This document shows, piece by piece, positions 21,775 to 34,734 of a DNA stretch of 64,000 bases. Origin of the DNA: a virus. A program made the position numbers and the translations under genes. The DNA lies in IMG/VR virus record IMGVR_UViG_3300030041_000010. One strand, given 5' to 3'. The notes beneath the pieces are model-generated. The model was not told the DNA's origin, did no database searches, and saw only the letters and a program-made list of their open reading frames with translations. Position 1 is the first letter of the stretch, and every line of letters begins with the position of its first letter.

Positions 21775-22268
21775 TGATGAACCCCATTCAGAAGAATATT
21801 GCAGATGGGATGAGCGCAATTGCTGCCGTCCTCACCGAAGCAACCTGTGGCGAAGCTTGCTGGCACGCTCGTGAAGAAGTTTGCCGTTGCTCCTGTGGCG
21901 GTAAGAACCATGGCTGTATGAAGACCTCAGCCGGTGGGCTCCGCCCGACCCGCACATGCAAGATTGACGGTCATCGCTATGAACTGGCCGCAGTTGGCAG
22001 CTACGGTGAGATGTATCGCGAAGCCCATAACGGTCTCAAAGCTATCGGTCCAAGGTCGGTCACCAAGTCCGGTTACAAGTATTTTTGGGGTGAGCGGGAA
22101 TCCGGCTCCCCACTCCGTGTCAAGTGTGCCACCAAGGAACAATTCAAGGCGTGGCCTGAACTGGAAGCCCACCGCTCGTTCCGCATGGACGCTGCCAAGA
22201 CTGCAACCTGCCAAGCTGCTCTGAACGTTAATGCACCATGGCCTTACATGCTCTGGAGGAAGATTTGA
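21774..22268 (+). CDS. Cys-rich putative zinc-binding protein (about 164 aa)
   Basis: Motif 'CGEACWHAREEVCRCSCGGKNHGC'. Start taken at the ATG that overlaps the upstream TGA. Confidence 0.5.
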   Translation: MMNPIQKNIADGMSAIAAVLTEATCGEACWHAREEVCRCSCGGKNHGCMKTSAGGLRPTRTCKIDGHRYELAAVGSYGEMYREAHNGLKAIGPRSVTKSGYKYFWGERESGSPLRVKCATKEQFKAWPELEAHRSFRMDAAKTATCQAALNVNAPWPYMLWRKI

Positions 22269-34200: not shown

Positions 34201-34734
34201 TCCTCTCTCAGTGTTAAAAGTATCGAAGCTTTGATTTGTGCCGTGATATACACGCAGTGGCCGACCATGGTCATCAACCACCTTGCTCCCATTGAACCAT
34301 GCTTGAAACGCAGGGTTCTTGGTAACATCCCCCGGCTGACCCATCCAGTCTTGGTCTTGGGTAAGCCCAGCCCCTTTTTTGGTTTGAAGGCAAAGACCCT
34401 CAGGCCATTGGGTTCCCGGCTTAGTTGCACACCAGATGGGAACACCACGATTTGCAGCGGTAGTGATGCGGTGCCGCCCGTCGAGCACATCTATCCGGTC
34501 GGTGTCGTAAGCATAGATTTTTGGATAATCGTCAACTGATTCCAGCAGTTCCAGACGCTTCAACCGGCTGGGATTCCAGTCAAACTTCTCTCCGGGGTGT
34601 TGAGACTCCCACAGGGCTTTGAACTTCCCGGCGTCAATTAAGACGAGTTCATTGTAACCGCTATTTCTGCGGTGTCTCTTATTAAATGGGATTTCGTTTA
34701 CGTCCAACCCGGTTGGAATGCGGTCTTCCATCAA
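22228..34734 (-). CDS. Polyvalent megaprotein (4168 aa) with an N-terminal ParB-like domain, about 16 tandem ART-like repeats, a PUA/EVE-like segment, a SprT-like HExxH zincin module and a GNAT domain
   Basis: Single uninterrupted ORF. The HG[ST] motif recurs at aa 164, 407, 617, 845, 1121, 1255, 1386, 1572, 1714, 2061, 2318, 2422, 2828, 2980, 3833 and 4090, each followed by F..F and a G[FW][YW]F-type motif. Confidence 0.9.
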   Translation of the reverse strand: MMEDRIPTGLDVNEIPFNKRHRRNSGYNELVLIDAGKFKALWESQHPGEKFDWNPSRLKRLELLESVDDYPKIYAYDTDRIDVLDGRHRITTAANRGVPIWCATKPGTQWPEGLCLQTKKGAGLTQDQDWMGQPGDVTKNPAFQAWFNGSKVVDDHGRPLRVYHGTNQSFDTFNTERGGGSTQNNAARMGFWFAAHPTVASEYADLASKQVVHNVEEHEKKYNQLSKEIEKAERRRDWETLERLTLELENHEFSALREEPKGMNVMPVFLRITNPKVIEANGSFLNIKDAEGNWIPVGDLIKSARDKGHDGVVFKDVEDTPGDSHTICDHFVVFSPSQIKSAIGNAGTFNPKDNRVTASSPRADEYKWTRMGDEYLVNLNHDNYSPSLIKPLDQKTAAKAISADWYHGSPHKFDQFKTVSKAGVTKEVVEQPIFLTPDLGFAKLHAGAHGWVYKVRANVESTFDGVDLLNYSERYYLDPKTFTPLGKKVYEDIANNKIWLDGDDDPVGYIKALARRNWDATQCPEFVRWMKANGYDSFLEEGEGHTNLGVFDSGRLEIISSTPVDKATTASKTAAYTAIMDKTASVQSKRLAVRRRMDVRHRAGIKKQALTIGPVYHGTTYDFDDFKRNKGLRSGFLGMTLEVDVFAFFFTKSKQQAIAYAKNRQQHTKQPCRLITANLTINNLLDLTNPNWVNTSITTPPIPLHKIQKTDTAEDSPGIYEEHAEELNKSTGLLDYLVNYLLADEMTSTEWGELAIDDGRDNYDRKIREPQLEEGFRAYDLFDNKKVTDALHYLGFDGAKVPEGDDQEFGGESYCVLSSNQVKIISNVDIDRKKAASTKTVRAYHGTTKQFDTFEVPAMFHVRRKYCEDLIAGQPDGHIIEAILTINNPANLDTLHVSPSDPKFKELAKSLEEQGYDGAQYKNEAWIAFYPDQIRVVNGKLPTFTVRLRSTMDKDSPQYSWEGEAKNEAAARREAKKYYEGIYAGDKEVNDDAVLNQAVKAGKYPELAGEGWPQDIPSTEALKRLGYDGIVYNNEGEGGGDSYVNFYPEQVEVVYGKTAAIRTIEARELRKGDIVYGYGQAFVVQRAVQDGDEMAVMSRKGQFRRFELTDQIKVDRNIGYHGVRSVYAGVDPEVSQWFRTMVELKKQFHEDSLGEAREAEKQAIAELGDKATPEMVAQRVYTLLGGHGVLNGNHLLLDPEEETSNEADIQQFGKTKDQMRRDAEFQDWARDKGIEIPPFPKAGSVKTAQVYDVYHGTEEEFEAFNDKFKGTGYGEAPINMLGFNFTDSEKAARTFGERVVHARVRINRPYIIDLKGEEYSYGKHTINRRLEKLDKDKYDGIIIKNYADAGRHGHYIKSNHYVPFSTSQIQIVDPAEKTAASNKLYHGTSMYGIVGILNDNTLYEGVHWGRDGEPHGPRLSRSKTVASNFAIEGLSGHPSEGAIIEFDAKALAQDYKLQDYEDVDWAGEKWEKPEHEVVVVAPEIKNVRKYITAIYLKVFKTQKAVKDYSLLVEEEERMSAKEWLAGYAKLLKDPLVKTPFKFAAVDDNSKFQAWFNGSKVVDAQGKPLVMYHGTSKDIDFPAFRNNKNGIWFTDSPDSASSYADNNDSQGYVYEHGKYEKTNTRSRVMPCYLSIKNPYKFTPEEDEAFRKVENYKRFQAQMFDKLRAKGYDGIDWGHGIWVVIGSPNQVKSAIGNNGEFSSKQNITASTTFLYHGTSSALLKGIFKNGDAGVLNAPNYWGTQRIAESFADAACDENGGTPIVFKFPLSQFDQSSLEVDHHIIAEPDCFTLNKTSDALYEEWEKVPGDGTWQDCLRIYEAVVYKKPVPVTKDDFDTVWSSHRAGFKVGVSGEGGATRYYIELSEPDKTAAYTGHYAFYIEVPKEARDHFWDEPPAHKMEFWAFRSRPRVLKGERIIFTMDKKPVAESLCAFVEKPGESKCGITGKYEKHWKVYWEPKTFKKKSKVASAVPHDDPAPKTAADYDDAYQQDRKEYSGKGWHENETDDERRQRYRRGNEWDQSLLAAISLGQFDPKEADNRNYIANSIGGRMADGFKPLPQTLYHVTTAKSKVQSGNLMSRFELDMGSGLGLGGGDDKSISFTEDLDIAKGIYNAMIEAKRVAAGEFTIQQMLDLATKGAGADRPWLTEFIRWAGAYRAPNNWNPGEPYPDDLQALLEGKKIQHAGFVSPKSESQLKAEGLEPVGDGWQGRDEHYWSAFKRPMTAKEKQDIDFDQYKLFCATREHAGGALNPLFFASDAEGLAKVPESEIAILQFKPIPGAMGTQESALGEWRTYSGKAVQLVGDVTSQVKTASTNEYILYHGTDKPFSRVDMNKGAQNTFWLTSDLNALKNGERGATSVKVILRCKVKITNPAGWDEYDKYSIDELIGLGYDGIILPDSDENFDAVVFEPSQVKIIGEEKTAAWHGTPHQHDEFNAEYIGTGEGANAYGWGFYFAENKEVAKQYSGEEGVGGSPVPTFYEIKGVRTEAGTAEQKAADLIMSMGTAGAKRLANEMLTEAKREDEWTKDKGLDYYQKIYDLTHSLSKADVKRAKGLLMEAQIPEADVLLDWDNEQQPPKVAQALAGLTGTGKEIYHRLSEEKGSSKAASLYLLSLGVKGIKYLDAYSRNQGKGTSNFVIFDAKDIRTVGKKLASGSVEVSPDGKYKEFTLTLKQGEAARQTSDGKNLWHQPHRPFGNRKNALLKQATDPNRPGFLFPEMEPDLQGDWHPEGQPEPEVVMNEQTLEDRLNSVEGDKAAVERTLNEFEAWKAHAYPGGALYCTEDAVIDVSDDGAVMFYDDPQEFVNTCRIEDFYPDAEDEFNKEFWSFPQELYHATDDSNLYAIMKEGLNVSNKTRGMSNRWVGSALFTSENIEQLEYGSYGDAIIAIDMAAMKAAGGELPYVGREPDVQEGESRESLAHALDLQNYSYDYESGMDAQTIIVYGSVPPQFLHIEQGNVDTPRTASLTKKSEQFGEEYNKTAADLWHGGRLYGPIEIQAPSKGRYEAGPGLYLTTSYARATQYAKGGKATYLVSVKDNLTFADKVEIPLAEGVEFATRYLGKGKLIATDLKNHCERMKKDTFSADILINLTVNYEAGSGKKGLALLRFLVDHGVDAALEAPSFGHEGKEQWVVVFNPKVVTKVRQISAKEVTPEMRHMPRIASDNKTTAKTAALPEVDTKEWTALLNRLKRKIVGTKKNVKQVATVLGNALGMWGVWIDPTEEENTGGRGEVFVSGCADSEGDNITLYYNEANLAQLVNADDAGWTKFVQESCIILAHELTHLDQFKANKRKNKGEVIPRREKKQVQKGEEFEKYFGSPIEISAFARDAVEELRNHNFSDVEVLKLIKEGGEKPSQFSSAYRDYWTCFGLYTDTPVANKVWKGFLNAIYQVVSRYPVKLPNSKKKKASKLTILYLDDCRVPNDPNIDVVHNYNEFVAYFNSHEMPNVISFDHDIDIEHCPTRAQAQQRDDGWRVPYEDYTVPTGLECAKWLVEHNMPVRGWQVHSANPVGADNIRKVMKAKWPKGEVYFPIPHRNDEDAVYGGKVKNGFRVNDPKTASWETHIPRDVIPTYLTSAKTSAKFVEKMENFRTTFENSLLKSSAKLAGEEFDLDDYLSKVTYENDIYDAHDNETYGTVRCKGPNGQTVGYIDYSLYTDYEIHTESGEPAEVIHIKMIETHRDARHRGIATKMLQKLKADNLGSLINWGGLTPEGNGFRQKFEKNSAAKGDCFKDCFSAISTDQAPGMKQSLSSMEDVRLVHGLVNLNDGRRGDHAWIEFRADQWEFVWEPQSKIVLSKDDFYNTLKPEVLAAYPEAQALGHGVRSGHSGPWEKVAAPRSIWYHGTPYKNLRSILAQGLIPEVKKREWQDDEHANIYKPSRESYGGVYVTTNMSTAMGAPRDTGYYGPGRMLLIAMELQPNTMYMDEDDINLTNLANGCPHLSDASWHVPSYYIAMTSPNTPEYWKEALEDIKARYIKECISYWDYNFENSVGAMHPEMKKRFLELLPSTWEAAITRQAAHAVAKMKDYDVIRAYRDVFSDVAYDETPPKEQIFPTIAQGEAAWRKASDQLTRSLKSKTRITPDKYKFRDTARITTPIGYHGSNRIIAVAEIRNGHQWRKKKEDGKEDYQSPVDIVMHYGKLPEDFFNQWKERQGTEINLIPAKPRLKSSSRACKAMVH
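23575..23937 (-). other. GNAT acetyltransferase-like domain in the megaprotein
   Basis: Motif 'HRDARHRGIATKMLQKLKADNLGSLINWGGLTPEGNGFRQKF'. Confidence 0.45.
24800..25060 (-). other. SprT-like/zincin HExxH metallopeptidase module in the megaprotein
   Basis: 'GEVFVSGCADSEGDNITLYYNE...ESCIILAHELTHLDQF'. The HELTH motif was checked at 24910..24924. Confidence 0.55.
28900..29142 (-). other. PUA/EVE/ASCH-like segment inside the megaprotein, about aa 1865-1945
   Basis: 'HYAFYIEVPKEARDHFWDEPP...VLKGERIIFTMDKKPVAESLCAFV' is similar to the EVE pattern. Confidence 0.3.
34390..34650 (-). other. ParB/Srx-like nuclease domain at the megaprotein N-terminus
   Basis: Motif 'YDTDRIDVLDGRHRITTAANRG'. Confidence 0.6.

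Follow-up and report, generated by a model that had tools for sequence, protein, structure and literature searches.

KTA[AS] motifs at module junctions of two giant polyvalent phage proteins as candidate cutting sites of the phage's own prohead protease

The window, by which we mean the whole 64,000-nucleotide stretch of phage DNA analysed, encodes two giant polyvalent proteins in addition to a head-maturation protease, a scaffold-like protein and the major capsid protein (Table 1). The larger giant, called the megaprotein below, has a ParB-like N-terminal end and contains multiple ART-PolyVal/PARP-like modules besides DUF3990-like, Tpt1-like, zincin-like (HELTH), cREC_REC and GNAT modules. 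The gene for the 1984-aa giant runs on, via a frameshift of one nucleotide, into the neighbouring 497-aa ORF, in which KTAD (aa 264) and KTAH (aa 296) lie at a module boundary and the terminal stretch reads NVTAS..TVAS. The giants correspond to textbook polyvalent proteins as described by Iyer, Burroughs, Anand, de Souza and Aravind (2017), with ART-PolyVal, GNAT, ParB-like, MPTase/SprT and cREC domains encoded near virion genes.

Table 1. Genes and motif sites of the window; aa, residue number in the encoded protein.
Feature	Position	Strand	Remarks
Prohead (head-maturation) protease	6205..7071	+	T4 gp21/herpesvirus assemblin fold
KVANA aa 5-9	6217..6231	+	Protease; K5, A7, A9 invariant in 54 homologues
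KTAA aa 33-36	6301..6312	+	Directly ahead of protease catalytic domain; [KR][TVI]A[SA] family-wide
KISA aa 39-42	6319..6330	+	Protease; KIAA/KTAA in relatives
KAAS aa 257-260	6973..6984	+	Directly behind protease catalytic domain; release-site-like position
KAAS aa 266-269	7000..7011	+	Protease island FAKAAS; A268 invariant
Scaffold-like protein, 802 aa	7176..9584	+	Acidic, low-complexity; between protease and decoration/MCP genes
TTAS aa 779-782	9510..9521	+	Scaffold-like protein; 21 residues from A/S bond to C-terminus
Major capsid protein	10346..11308	+	True start MANLSR
KTAA aa 87	18157..18168	+	720-aa virion-module protein; ITAS just before
KTAS aa 490	19366..19377	+	720-aa virion-module protein
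Megaprotein, 4168 aa	22228..34734	-	Polyvalent; Pfam ART-PolyVal (303 bits), cREC_REC, others; per-segment scan; identical cluster P0001
KTAA aa 395	33541..33552	-	Megaprotein; opens shuffled module 395-571
KTAA aa 572	33010..33021	-	Megaprotein; closes module 395-571
KTAS aa 582	32980..32991	-	Megaprotein
KTAA aa 1057	31555..31566	-	Megaprotein; ahead of non-ART module without Pfam match
KTAQ aa 1246	30988..30999	-	Megaprotein; ahead of small ART-PolyVal module
KTAA aa 1377	30595..30606	-	Megaprotein
KTAA aa 1866	29128..29139	-	Megaprotein; opens cassette common to P0002/P0003, 71-75% identity
KVAS aa 1963	28837..28848	-	Megaprotein; variant site closing the P0002/P0003 cassette begun at aa 1866
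KTAA aa 1976	28798..28809	-	Megaprotein; opens cassette 1976-2306, common to P0003 site to site
KTAS aa 2307	27805..27816	-	Megaprotein; 3 residues ahead of strand 1 of small ART module
KTAA aa 2417	27475..27486	-	Megaprotein; junction to DUF3990-like module, T-A-A modelled as strand 1 start
KTAA aa 2973	25807..25818	-	Megaprotein; opens cassette common to P0004
KTAA aa 3163	25237..25248	-	Megaprotein; ahead of zincin-like (HELTH) module
KTAS aa 3548	24082..24093	-	Megaprotein; ahead of GNAT module
KVAA aa 3823	23257..23268	-	Megaprotein; variant site opening PARP-like cassette common to P0015/P0019
ART-like ORF, 273 aa	35315..36136	-	Free-standing (MPKFLYHVT...)
497-aa ORF	36129..37622	-	Frameshifted continuation of 1984-aa gene
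1984-aa giant	37465..43419	-	Polyvalent; SprT-like, GNAT x2, ART, ParB_N, others
KTAS aa 1753	38152..38163	-	1984-aa giant; ahead of ART module
KTAA aa 1220	39751..39762	-	1984-aa giant; behind ParB_N module
KTAS aa 1018	40357..40368	-	1984-aa giant; ahead of ParB_N module
KTAI aa 794	41029..41040	-	1984-aa giant
KTAM aa 651	41458..41469	-	1984-aa giant; ART to GNAT junction
KTAA aa 434	42109..42120	-	1984-aa giant; GNAT to ART junction
KVAS aa 287	42550..42561	-	1984-aa giant; ahead of GNAT module; KTAM at paralogous position aa 651
KTAA aa 23	43342..43353	-	1984-aa giant; N-terminal site, ~21 from likely Met

KTA[AS] is strongly enriched in both giants. The megaprotein contains 13 KTA tripeptides (1.5 expected) and 12 KTA[AS] (0.2 expected), the latter count being reached in none of 2000 composition-preserving shuffles, and the 1984-aa protein contains 7 (0.7 expected) and 5 (0.08 expected), respectively; among over-represented tripeptides, KTA ranks directly behind the catalytic YHG/HGT. 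The looser form K[TVIA]A[AS] occurs 22 times in the two giants together (1.3 expected) and 10 times in the other head/virion-module ORFs of the window (1.8 expected), and is absent from the 17 right-arm ORFs (43791-63988; 0.8 expected). The 32 KTA sites of the window are encoded by 14 different 9-mers, and this variation in codons places the signal, and selection on it, at the protein level. It also contradicts the idea that the motif is a DNA-level signal, such as a micro-homology for cassette recombination or some other nucleotide motif, since only the amino acids are conserved; the coincidence of the motif with cassette boundaries would fit such a signal, but the motif recurs in proteins that are at most 50% identical and come from unrelated samples, and the shuffles argue equally against a chance or compositional effect. 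We consider any explanation of this type exceedingly improbable. Some matches cannot be sites, as the tail sheath KTAA is conserved and the KAAS at aa 2601 lies inside a conserved helix; the KTAG of the major capsid protein is within an invariant N-arm and hence uninformative.

The sequence-only reading had proposed that the motif precedes almost every repeat of the megaprotein and that it is a maturation-protease site. All the motif strings that it quoted are found in the sequences; one of them, STKTVRAYHGT, reads KTV and not KTA, and 'almost every repeat' is somewhat overstated, in that a motif variant lies 5-12 residues upstream of 8 of the 13 HG[STG] sites and within 35 residues of 10, with no motif in the 35 residues ahead of the two long canonical ART-PolyVal copies (HG 164 and 1572) and of the last HG site. 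The association is not confined to ART repeats: seven of the 13 KTA sites of the megaprotein have no HG inside about 15 residues downstream (one of these has HG at 35 residues), and by Pfam and the per-segment scan the KTA-type motif also stands ahead of zincin-like, GNAT and unassigned modules. One point against the protease-site reading is that the megaprotein has no N-terminal copy of the motif, which is found at residues 6-32 in 5 of 12 KTA-rich giants.

The junction sites are also the boundaries of cassettes. Among HSPs of at least 40% identity, 50% of ends fall no more than 7 residues from a site, compared to 5% at random (0/2000), and one of the clearest cases is the alignment of residues 1971-2311 of the megaprotein with 2004-2340 of P0003, which has the motif at both ends in both partners. 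Judging from these alignments, the motif plus its module is the unit shuffled between related phages. Only a subset of 120 ART-PolyVal giants is rich in KTA, with 8-20 copies versus about 1 expected, whereas the others have 0-1. The KTA-rich giants come from loci that share synteny with the window, or from contigs equal in length to the longest contig of a protease homologue (P0004/P0220, 135141; P0005/P0151, 155417, also locus L024), and the KTA-poor P0016 and P0006 are found in plasmid/ICE-like contexts with no head genes. The motif is in this sense a mark of lineage and not of the ART domain. In loci L083-L085 the motif is confined to the polyvalent genes, with none in 36 neighbouring genes.

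A prohead protease, for which the sequence-only reading had suggested a search, is encoded in the window. It has a catalytic core at about residues 45-233, flanked by disordered tails (1-44 and 234-288) that are variable in sequence save for conserved islands at K5/A7/A9, K33 and A268/S269. Across 135 diverse relatives (family members at no more than 50% identity), [KR][TVIA]A[AS] is found 225 times where 37 would be expected, with 68 of the sites at residues 20-40, 61 at residues 260-320 and only 5 within 50-240. The N-terminal pattern MxF[LK]KxAxA is present in 96 of 150 distant relatives, a site lies 20-28 residues (mode 26) from the C-terminus in 111 of 117 homologues, and the most enriched tripeptides in the C-terminal extensions include KAA, KVA, AAS, RVA and RTA. 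The distant relative gp19 of phage G has KTAA (43), KVAS (248) and KIAS (274), and Catera gp94, in which protease and scaffold are fused, has RTAAVRTAA. The scaffold-like protein shares in this conservation: its family shows an approximately 3-fold enrichment of [TVIM]AS, and [TVIAM]AS lies 9-33 residues from the end in 23 of 34 C-terminal tails, followed by a tail resembling that of the protease itself. In the window, the residues behind TTAS, FDIGEALF, are similar to VDVGEALM in the protease tail, an M-site-like arrangement.

A motif that separates the enzyme modules of the giants and brackets the phage's own protease is most likely the site at which that protease cuts, and we think it probable that the KTA[AS] sites are prohead-protease sites and the giants polyproteins. 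The occurrence of the motif in the disordered protease tails and near the scaffold-like C-terminus supports the maturation-protease reading, and every computational test proposed with it had a favourable outcome. We infer that K-T-A-[A/S], or more loosely [K/R]-[T/V/I/A]-A-[A/S], is bound and cut by the prohead protease of this lineage, with Ala and the next residue (Ala/Ser) as the probable P1 and P1'. The protease would be built into the prohead by its C-terminal tail, which is similar to that of the scaffold-like protein, and would there free its own catalytic domain through the sites at about residue 33 and residues 257-269, shorten the scaffold-like protein by about 20 C-terminal residues, and cut the co-packaged giants at the same motif, found at nearly every module junction. 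Maturation inside the capsid would thus turn the 4168-aa protein into about 13-19 effectors and the ~2440-aa protein into about 8-10, of 100-600 residues each, a size that would allow their ejection along with the DNA; among them would be ADP-ribosyltransferases, GNATs, ParB-like nucleases and peptidases. Each giant, if cut, would provide many small injected enzymes. The literature within reach yielded no proteomic or N-terminal data on either this phage or relatives of it.

Herpesvirus proteases cut their substrates at Asn-Ala/Ser, the bond lying between Ala and Ser (PMC13486704), and in HSV-1 the protease domain is followed by the R site, with the M site 25 residues ahead of the C-terminus of the scaffold (PMC12474303). 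The phage sites resemble these assemblin R and M sites in having Ala at P1 and Ser/Ala at P1', one site directly behind the catalytic domain and another about 20-26 residues from the C-terminus of the scaffold or protease tail, and, as in UL26, many relatives are protease-scaffold fusions (Catera gp94 and most of the 150 representatives). They differ in having Lys/Arg at P3, where herpesvirus sites are hydrophobic at P3/P4, and in an extra site ahead of the catalytic domain; in the window, protease and scaffold-like protein are separate genes, unlike UL26, and some of the proposed substrates are multi-domain effector arrays, absent from herpesviruses. In T4, Alt and the internal proteins lose short N-terminal targeting peptides to gp21, a protease with a C-terminal propeptide that takes part in targeting (PMC7411985). 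As in T4 and phiKZ/SPN3US, a head protease here would trim packaged and ejected proteins, including an ADP-ribosyltransferase. The T4 and SPN3US proteases cut after Glu (AXE in SPN3US; PMC7411985, PMC10052503), in contrast to the bond between Ala and Ser proposed here, so that specificity is not predictable from the fold; the substrates known for them receive one cut or a few, close to the N-terminus, whereas about a dozen internal junctions, freeing separate enzymes, are proposed here.

Alternatively, the motif may be an uncleaved connector between modules, a lineage-specific form of that present in all ART-PolyVal arrays, with a role as final loop and opening strand of every module or in folding or docking; the giants would then be intact in the virion. 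In an AF2 model of residues 2285-2700 of the megaprotein, the loop at junction 2417 spans only about 5 residues, strand 1 of the following domain is formed by T-A-A-W-H-G-T, and A2420 is the conserved first residue of that domain in all lineages; were the substrate folded, this model suggests that protease access there may be blocked. The flanks of 75 KTA[AS] sites (10 residues per side) are not enriched in disorder-promoting residues. Other polyvalent lineages, some of them on conjugative-type elements, carry in the same place a conserved connector of another sequence (NPDIRFSR, NPNILMQS or DPSILMS, directly ahead of [AFYW]HG), with whose I-R-F-S and I-L-M-Q the ITAS/VTAS of the window aligns; a connector as such therefore requires no prohead protease. 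This explanation nevertheless fails to account for the conserved islands in the protease tails, the bracketing of the catalytic domain at no more than 50% identity, the site near the scaffold-like C-terminus and the motif at residues 6-12 of several giants, and it sits uneasily with a spacing to the HG strand that varies from 2 to 35 residues and with the unrelated folds that the motif precedes. We regard it as unlikely, if the most serious of the alternatives. The related proposal that the motif is simply the first beta-strand of the duplicated domain holds in part at single junctions such as KTAA 2417 and is rejected as a general explanation.

Another reading, in which the motif is cut by the giants' own metallopeptidase domains, either inside the capsid or once injected, seems more doubtful still. 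Both giants carry candidate enzymes (zincin-like HELTH in the megaprotein, SprT-like and HETTH in the 1984-aa protein; after Iyer et al.), and PMC5512222 draws the polyprotein analogy, suggests that embedded peptidases free the domains by autoproteolysis and mentions rare C-terminal assemblin-like peptidase domains. Conservation of the motif, however, is strongest in the serine protease, whether encoded on its own or fused to scaffold-like extensions; phage G gp19 and Catera gp94 belong here, and neither sequence contains a metallopeptidase. The SprT-like gene of L083 is a separate small ORF. We also know of no sequence specificity of SprT/MPTase domains that fits the motif.

Proteolysis by the stand-alone prohead protease would extend this earlier picture: a term search of the available text of PMC5512222 for 'linker' gave no match, and that text describes no junction motif or cleavage consensus; trans-processing by a stand-alone prohead protease and a motif that delimits shuffled cassettes or tracks phage lineage are likewise absent from the available parts of Iyer et al. 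(2017). According to PMC5512222, the large anti-defence proteins DarA and DdrB of phage P1 undergo proteolytic processing and are packaged in the head, as proposed here for the giants; the Dar proteins differ in undergoing single processing events, with no known repeated junction motif and an unrelated head protease. Also in favour of the polyprotein reading, residue 4 of the 273-aa ART-like ORF aligns with modules that in P0019 and P0097 come 3-4 residues behind a KTAA, these two proteins having KTAA-xxx-LYHVT where the window has a separate ORF starting MPKFLYHVT.

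Our analysis showed that the KTA[AS] motif occurs in the 4168-aa megaprotein and the 1984-aa protein (together, the giants) far more often than expected. The megaprotein has 13 KTA (1.5 expected) and 12 KTA[AS], where 0.2 are expected and none of 2000 shuffles reached that number; the 1984-aa protein has 7 KTA and 5 KTA[AS] (0.7 and 0.08 expected, respectively). Among tripeptides, the over-representation of KTA is second only to that of the catalytic YHG/HGT. These counts bear out the excess noticed in the sequence-only reading, which proposed the string as a possible maturation-protease site in a polyprotein. 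Its statement that the motif precedes almost every repeat is slightly generous: a motif variant does lie 5-12 residues upstream of 8 of the 13 HG[STG] sites and within 35 residues of 10, but none precedes the two canonical long ART-PolyVal copies. The +1 position is A or S in 76 of 116 sites, with no other flanking preference, and the flanks of 75 sites, expected to be disorder-like in composition, proved ordinary. The looser form K[TVIA]A[AS], which yields false positives within a conserved DUF3990-like helix (KAAS at aa 2601 of the megaprotein and at aa 218 of the 497-aa ORF), is found 22 times in the giants vs 1.3 expected, 10 times in the other virion-module ORFs vs 1.8 and not at all in 17 right-arm ORFs vs 0.8. 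The window's 32 KTA sites are encoded by 14 different nucleotide 9-mers, which points to selection on the peptide rather than on the DNA. On this codon diversity, a DNA-level motif or recombination signal was rejected, and an explanation of the motif by a DNA-level signal or by chance is extremely improbable.

The window comes from a G-like jumbo myophage. Its major capsid protein (MCP) shares 70% identity with the protein of Tunturiibacter phage Tunturi_5 (309 kb), 48% with that of an uncultured phage of 485 kb and 35% with that of Bacillus phage G; a megablast of 22 kb of the window against phage records gave no match, relatives emerging only at the protein level. Alignment with 42 homologues places the true MCP start at the ATG giving MANLSR (~10346), not at the TTG at 10301. 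The order of the head module (protease, 802-aa scaffold-like protein, 167-aa protein, MCP) is identical in Tunturi_5 and phage G. This module is interrupted by homing-endonuclease ORFs, which flank the genes downstream of the MCP, and Mycobacterium phage Catera likewise has an HNH gene directly after its MCP. The ORF directly upstream of the protease gene combines an ART-like MWYHGTS module with P/Q-rich spacers and an extended acidic (DDE)n tract, and four Cys residues cluster at its C-terminus; its counterparts in related loci range from ~340 to 2570 aa, some with several KTA sites and others with none.

Features of the window discussed in the text
Feature	Coordinates	Strand	Location and remarks
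Tail sheath gene	8-1411		Left arm
ORF directly upstream of the protease gene	4274-6184		
Head-maturation (prohead) protease	6205-7071	+	Left arm; phrog_18299, E 8.7e-15
Scaffold-like protein, 802 aa	7176-9584	+	Left arm; acidic, low-complexity
MCP			Left arm; phrog_2522
HNH and GIY-YIG homing-endonuclease ORFs	11371-12801, 15804-16433		Inserted in the head module
4168-aa polyvalent protein (megaprotein)	22228-34734	-	
497-aa ORF	36129-37622		
1984-aa polyvalent protein	37465-43419	-	
InPase (PF18823), 179 aa	43791-44330		Free-standing; adjoins the polyvalent genes

Both giants are classic polyvalent proteins, with disparate effector domains, encoded by a phage near its sheath, protease and MCP genes. 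Pfam searches and a per-segment scan identified ART-PolyVal (PF18760; five stretches, 303.5 bits vs a Pfam gathering score of 31.2), cREC_REC, PARP, DUF3990, Tpt1-like and GNAT domains in the megaprotein, and SprT-like, two GNAT and ParB_N domains in the 1984-aa protein. The InPase domain, free-standing here, is embedded within polyvalent proteins of other elements (P0014, P0032, P0033 and others).

The sequence-only reading had also considered that the motif might simply be the first strand of the duplicated domain, and had asked whether it occurs outside ART modules. It does: seven of the 13 KTA sites of the megaprotein have no HG site within ~15 residues downstream, and the modules that follow include a zincin-like HELTH module (3163), a GNAT domain (3548) and three modules with no Pfam match (1057, 1866, 1976). 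Where an ART domain follows, the Pfam profile begins at its position 9-10, 8-34 residues past the motif, and the spacing from motif to HG strand varies from 2 to 35 residues. Most of the 120 giant ART-PolyVal homologues have 0-1 KTA, and only a subset is KTA-rich (20 in P0010, 17 in P0024 and 10 each in P0003 and P0015, each vs ~1 expected). Judged by these sequence comparisons, the motif does not belong to the ART domain.

The motif marks the borders of exchanged cassettes. BLAST HSPs of the megaprotein with its KTA-rich homologues have their two endpoints at the motif, and the clearest examples show this in both partners. Residues 1971-2311 align with 2004-2340 of P0003 at offsets of -5/-5 and +4/+4 from the sites, and residues 1863-1967 align with P0002 at offsets of -3/-3 and +4/+2; residues 395-571, 67% identical to P0011, run from site to site in the megaprotein and begin at residue 7 in P0011. 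Half of the endpoints of HSPs with at least 40% identity lie no more than 7 residues from a site, vs 5% for random site positions (0/2000). In the 1984-aa protein, each Pfam domain occupies a separate motif-delimited segment. From residue 4 onward, a free-standing 273-aa ORF (MPKFLYHVT...) aligns with modules that, in P0019 and P0097, come 3-4 residues after a KTAA; thus, the start of an ORF in one genome corresponds to a motif site in another.

The sequence-only reading had proposed a search for a prohead protease gene, which turned up the very gene it had listed merely as a motif carrier. Its product has an assemblin-like fold whose best structural match is T4 gp21. Fold comparison was the sole route to this placement; the sequence matched no Pfam family at E <= 0.01 and no PDB sequence at E <= 10. 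The invariant Ser and His residues among its homologues are S50, H51, S57, H105, H115, S162, H188 and H213, and conserved islands stand out in its variable tails: K5, A7, A9, K33, K39, A42 and A268/S269, the last invariant or nearly so. Among 117 close homologues, K.A.A is found at residues 5-9 in 107, K-x-A-[AS] near residue 33 in 111, and K-x-A-[AS] 20-28 residues (mode 26) from the C-terminus, again in 111. Searching 1.8 billion representatives with a profile yielded 150 relatives (P0241-P0390, at most 50% mutually identical). The 135 with an N-terminal protease domain contain 225 [KR][TVIA]A[AS] strings vs 37 expected, with 68 sites at residues 20-40, 61 at 260-320 and just 5 within 50-240, so that the motif brackets the catalytic domain. 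In phage G gp19, it reads KTAA (43), KVAS (248) and KIAS (274). Most of the distant relatives are fusion proteins of 450-1000 aa (the majority 450-600 aa), in which a protease domain carries a long C-terminal extension; the tripeptides with the strongest enrichment in these extensions include KAA, KVA, AAS, RVA and RTA. Catera gp94 (locus L088, 4231-8340; 1369 aa) likewise joins a protease, at residues 44-217, to a scaffold-like part, with RTAAVRTAA after the protease domain; R-T-A-A replaces K-T-A-A in both gp93 and gp94 of this phage. Such fusions give phages a protease-scaffold arrangement like that of herpesvirus UL26.

A related site is present near the end of the scaffold-like protein. 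In this family, 23 of 34 distinct C-termini have [TVIAM]-A-S 9-33 residues from the end (KTTTAS|D in the window, KPVVAS, KPITAS and KNVTAS elsewhere), and [TVIM]AS is enriched about 3-fold, vs a depletion in the MCP. After the x-A-S comes a D-[IV]-[AG]-x-A-L-[FL] stretch akin to VDVGEALM in the protease tail; in the window, the similar stretches past x-A-S are ..SRFDIGEALFGRDED (9510-9584) in the scaffold-like protein and ..AVDVGEALMSSDLEGGLLR (7000-7071) in the protease. This likeness suggests that the two proteins dock to the same prohead site, as does the C-terminus common to herpesvirus UL26 and UL26.5. Several KTA-rich giants have a motif close to their N-terminus (MTERSKTAS, MSELTPKTAS, MNPLLQMKTAA), at residue 6 in P0002, 7 in P0003, 8 in P0005, 12 in P0010 and 32 in P0015; it lies at residue 5 in the protease and ~21 in the 1984-aa protein, and the 4168-aa protein has none near its N-terminus. 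Two further candidates were set aside. KTAG in the MCP, considered as an N-terminal cleavage site, is uninformative, as relatives do not vary anywhere in the N-arm and the phage G counterpart reads KALE; the KTAA of the tail sheath is conserved, but was taken as a coincidental match because the sheath is a tail protein.

The layout of these candidate sites is that of the herpesvirus R and M sites, with a small P1 Ala, Ser or Ala at P1', one site after the catalytic domain and one ~25 residues from the C-terminus. Ala|Ser is the bond that herpesvirus proteases hydrolyse; the substrate in HCMV contains Asn-Ala-Ser-Ser and is released after Ala (PMC13486704). In HSV-1, the R site comes after the protease domain, and cleavage at the M site, located 25 residues before the end of the scaffold, detaches it from the MCP (PMC12474303). 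Ala|Ser cleavage cannot be predicted from the fold by itself, since the T4 and SPN3US enzymes cut after Glu (PMC7411985). T4 gp21 trims the packaged ADP-ribosyltransferase Alt and internal proteins, removing an N-terminal targeting peptide of 10-20 residues (PMC7411985), to which the motif at residues 6-12 of several KTA-rich giants may be likened.

Taken together, all the indirect tests available favour the maturation-protease interpretation, and we consider it fairly probable that the motif is a recognition site of the prohead protease, with A|[A/S] probably the scissile bond. The protease would enter the prohead via the tail it has in common with the scaffold-like protein, free its own catalytic domain on both sides and release the C-terminal anchor of the scaffold-like protein. 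It would then cut the co-packaged giants at their junctions, into ~13-19 and ~8-10 effector proteins of 100-600 residues. As one fusion the modules would be packaged together, and once cut they would be small enough to exit via the tail. Polyvalent proteins have been likened to viral polyproteins, with release by embedded peptidases proposed (Iyer et al., 2017; PMC5512222); the word 'linker' does not occur there, and the passages at hand give no junction motif and no trans-processing by a prohead protease. Cleavage by metallopeptidases embedded in the giants would fit that proposal and the zincin-like HELTH module of the megaprotein; with the motif also bracketing the prohead protease domain, we regard it as quite improbable. 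No cleavage data are given in the multi-omics and tail papers on phage G or in the Tunturi paper.

An AlphaFold model of megaprotein residues 2285-2700 (window 26635-27882; 21-sequence alignment, pLDDT 77) predicts two modules with compact ART/PARP-like folds, joined at 2417 by a loop of just 5 residues, with T-A-A-W-H-G-T as strand 1 of the next domain. A2420 is the conserved first residue of that domain in every lineage. According to the model, a cut at 2417 would need local unfolding; it would yield the N-terminus expected for free-standing homologues. In a Foldseek search, the model matched tankyrase/PARP and RES-toxin structures and, weakly (probability 0.77), a cyanophage A4 pre-ejectosome chain (9k3a_B).

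Such a tight junction would suit a motif that merely connects modules and is never cleaved, and connectors are indeed found in other polyvalent lineages (P0016, P0017, P0030, P0006, P0092, P0025), each with its own repeats: QIKSAxGNxGxFDPxNP, then DIRFSR, NILMQS or DPSILMS directly before the [AFYW]HG of the next module; ITFSRD..GPVEF; and ESWDESxHPRDxxGRF, repeated ~15 times in P0025. Some of these belong to conjugative-type elements, so a prohead protease is not needed for a connector to exist. The distinctive point in the window is that the connector shares its sequence with the sites that surround the protease and lie close to the C-terminus of the scaffold-like protein; we judge an uncleaved connector to be unlikely. 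The connectors of other lineages may be analogous processing or docking signals.

Gene neighbourhoods indicate that the motif tracks the phage lineage. Loci L083 and L084 (which carry P0003 and P0024) are syntenic with the window, with InPase, SprT-like, a GNAT giant and an ART giant, and across L083-L085 the motif is present only in the polyvalent genes (0/36 neighbouring genes). The longest contigs of P0004 and the protease homologue P0220 have the same size (135141), as do those of P0005 and the protease homologue P0151 (155417, also locus L024). The KTA-poor P0016 and P0006 have KfrA-like, integrase, methylase and UmuC/S24 genes as neighbours, with no head genes there. The polyvalent gp321 of Tunturi_5 has mostly KAAA, KSAA and KTAN instead of KTA[AS], a degenerate motif in a proteome rich in Ala.

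Prohead-protease processing of packaged effectors and the polyprotein analogy are already known in kind; what stands out here is the herpesvirus-like layout of the candidate sites and the use of the motif as a cassette delimiter. The question touched is how polyvalent proteins of several thousand residues are packaged, ejected and activated, and the motif turns the analogy into exact predicted neo-N-termini. If the preferred reading, that of a prohead-protease site, is true, the gp21/assemblin fold would include a phage enzyme whose Ala|Ser sites have the arrangement of herpesvirus R and M sites, and the parallel would extend beyond the fold to the layout of the sites. More tentatively, it is possible that the giants of G-like jumbo phages are true polyproteins, diced in the prohead by an assemblin-fold protease of herpesvirus-like Ala|Ser specificity into a dozen or more injected enzymes, that a site plus one domain is the swapped cassette and, by extension, that NPDIRFSR, NPNILMQS and HPRDxxGRF are processing codes for the delivery machineries of other lineages. 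The motif also allows the giants to be split into functional units for annotation and expression, and predicts protease substrates among the head proteins of jumbo phages from soil and sediment that form a large clade, most of it uncultured.

The 1984-aa and 497-aa ORFs, which overlap at 37465-37622, are one gene split by a single extra G, either an assembly/sequencing indel or a genuine frameshift. The site is a G5 run at ~37497-37501 (minus strand; ...tac ggg tgg ggg act gta...), and deletion of one G from it gives YGWGLYFAGNRDV, the conserved GEGxQxYGWGLYFA core of the DUF3990-like module.
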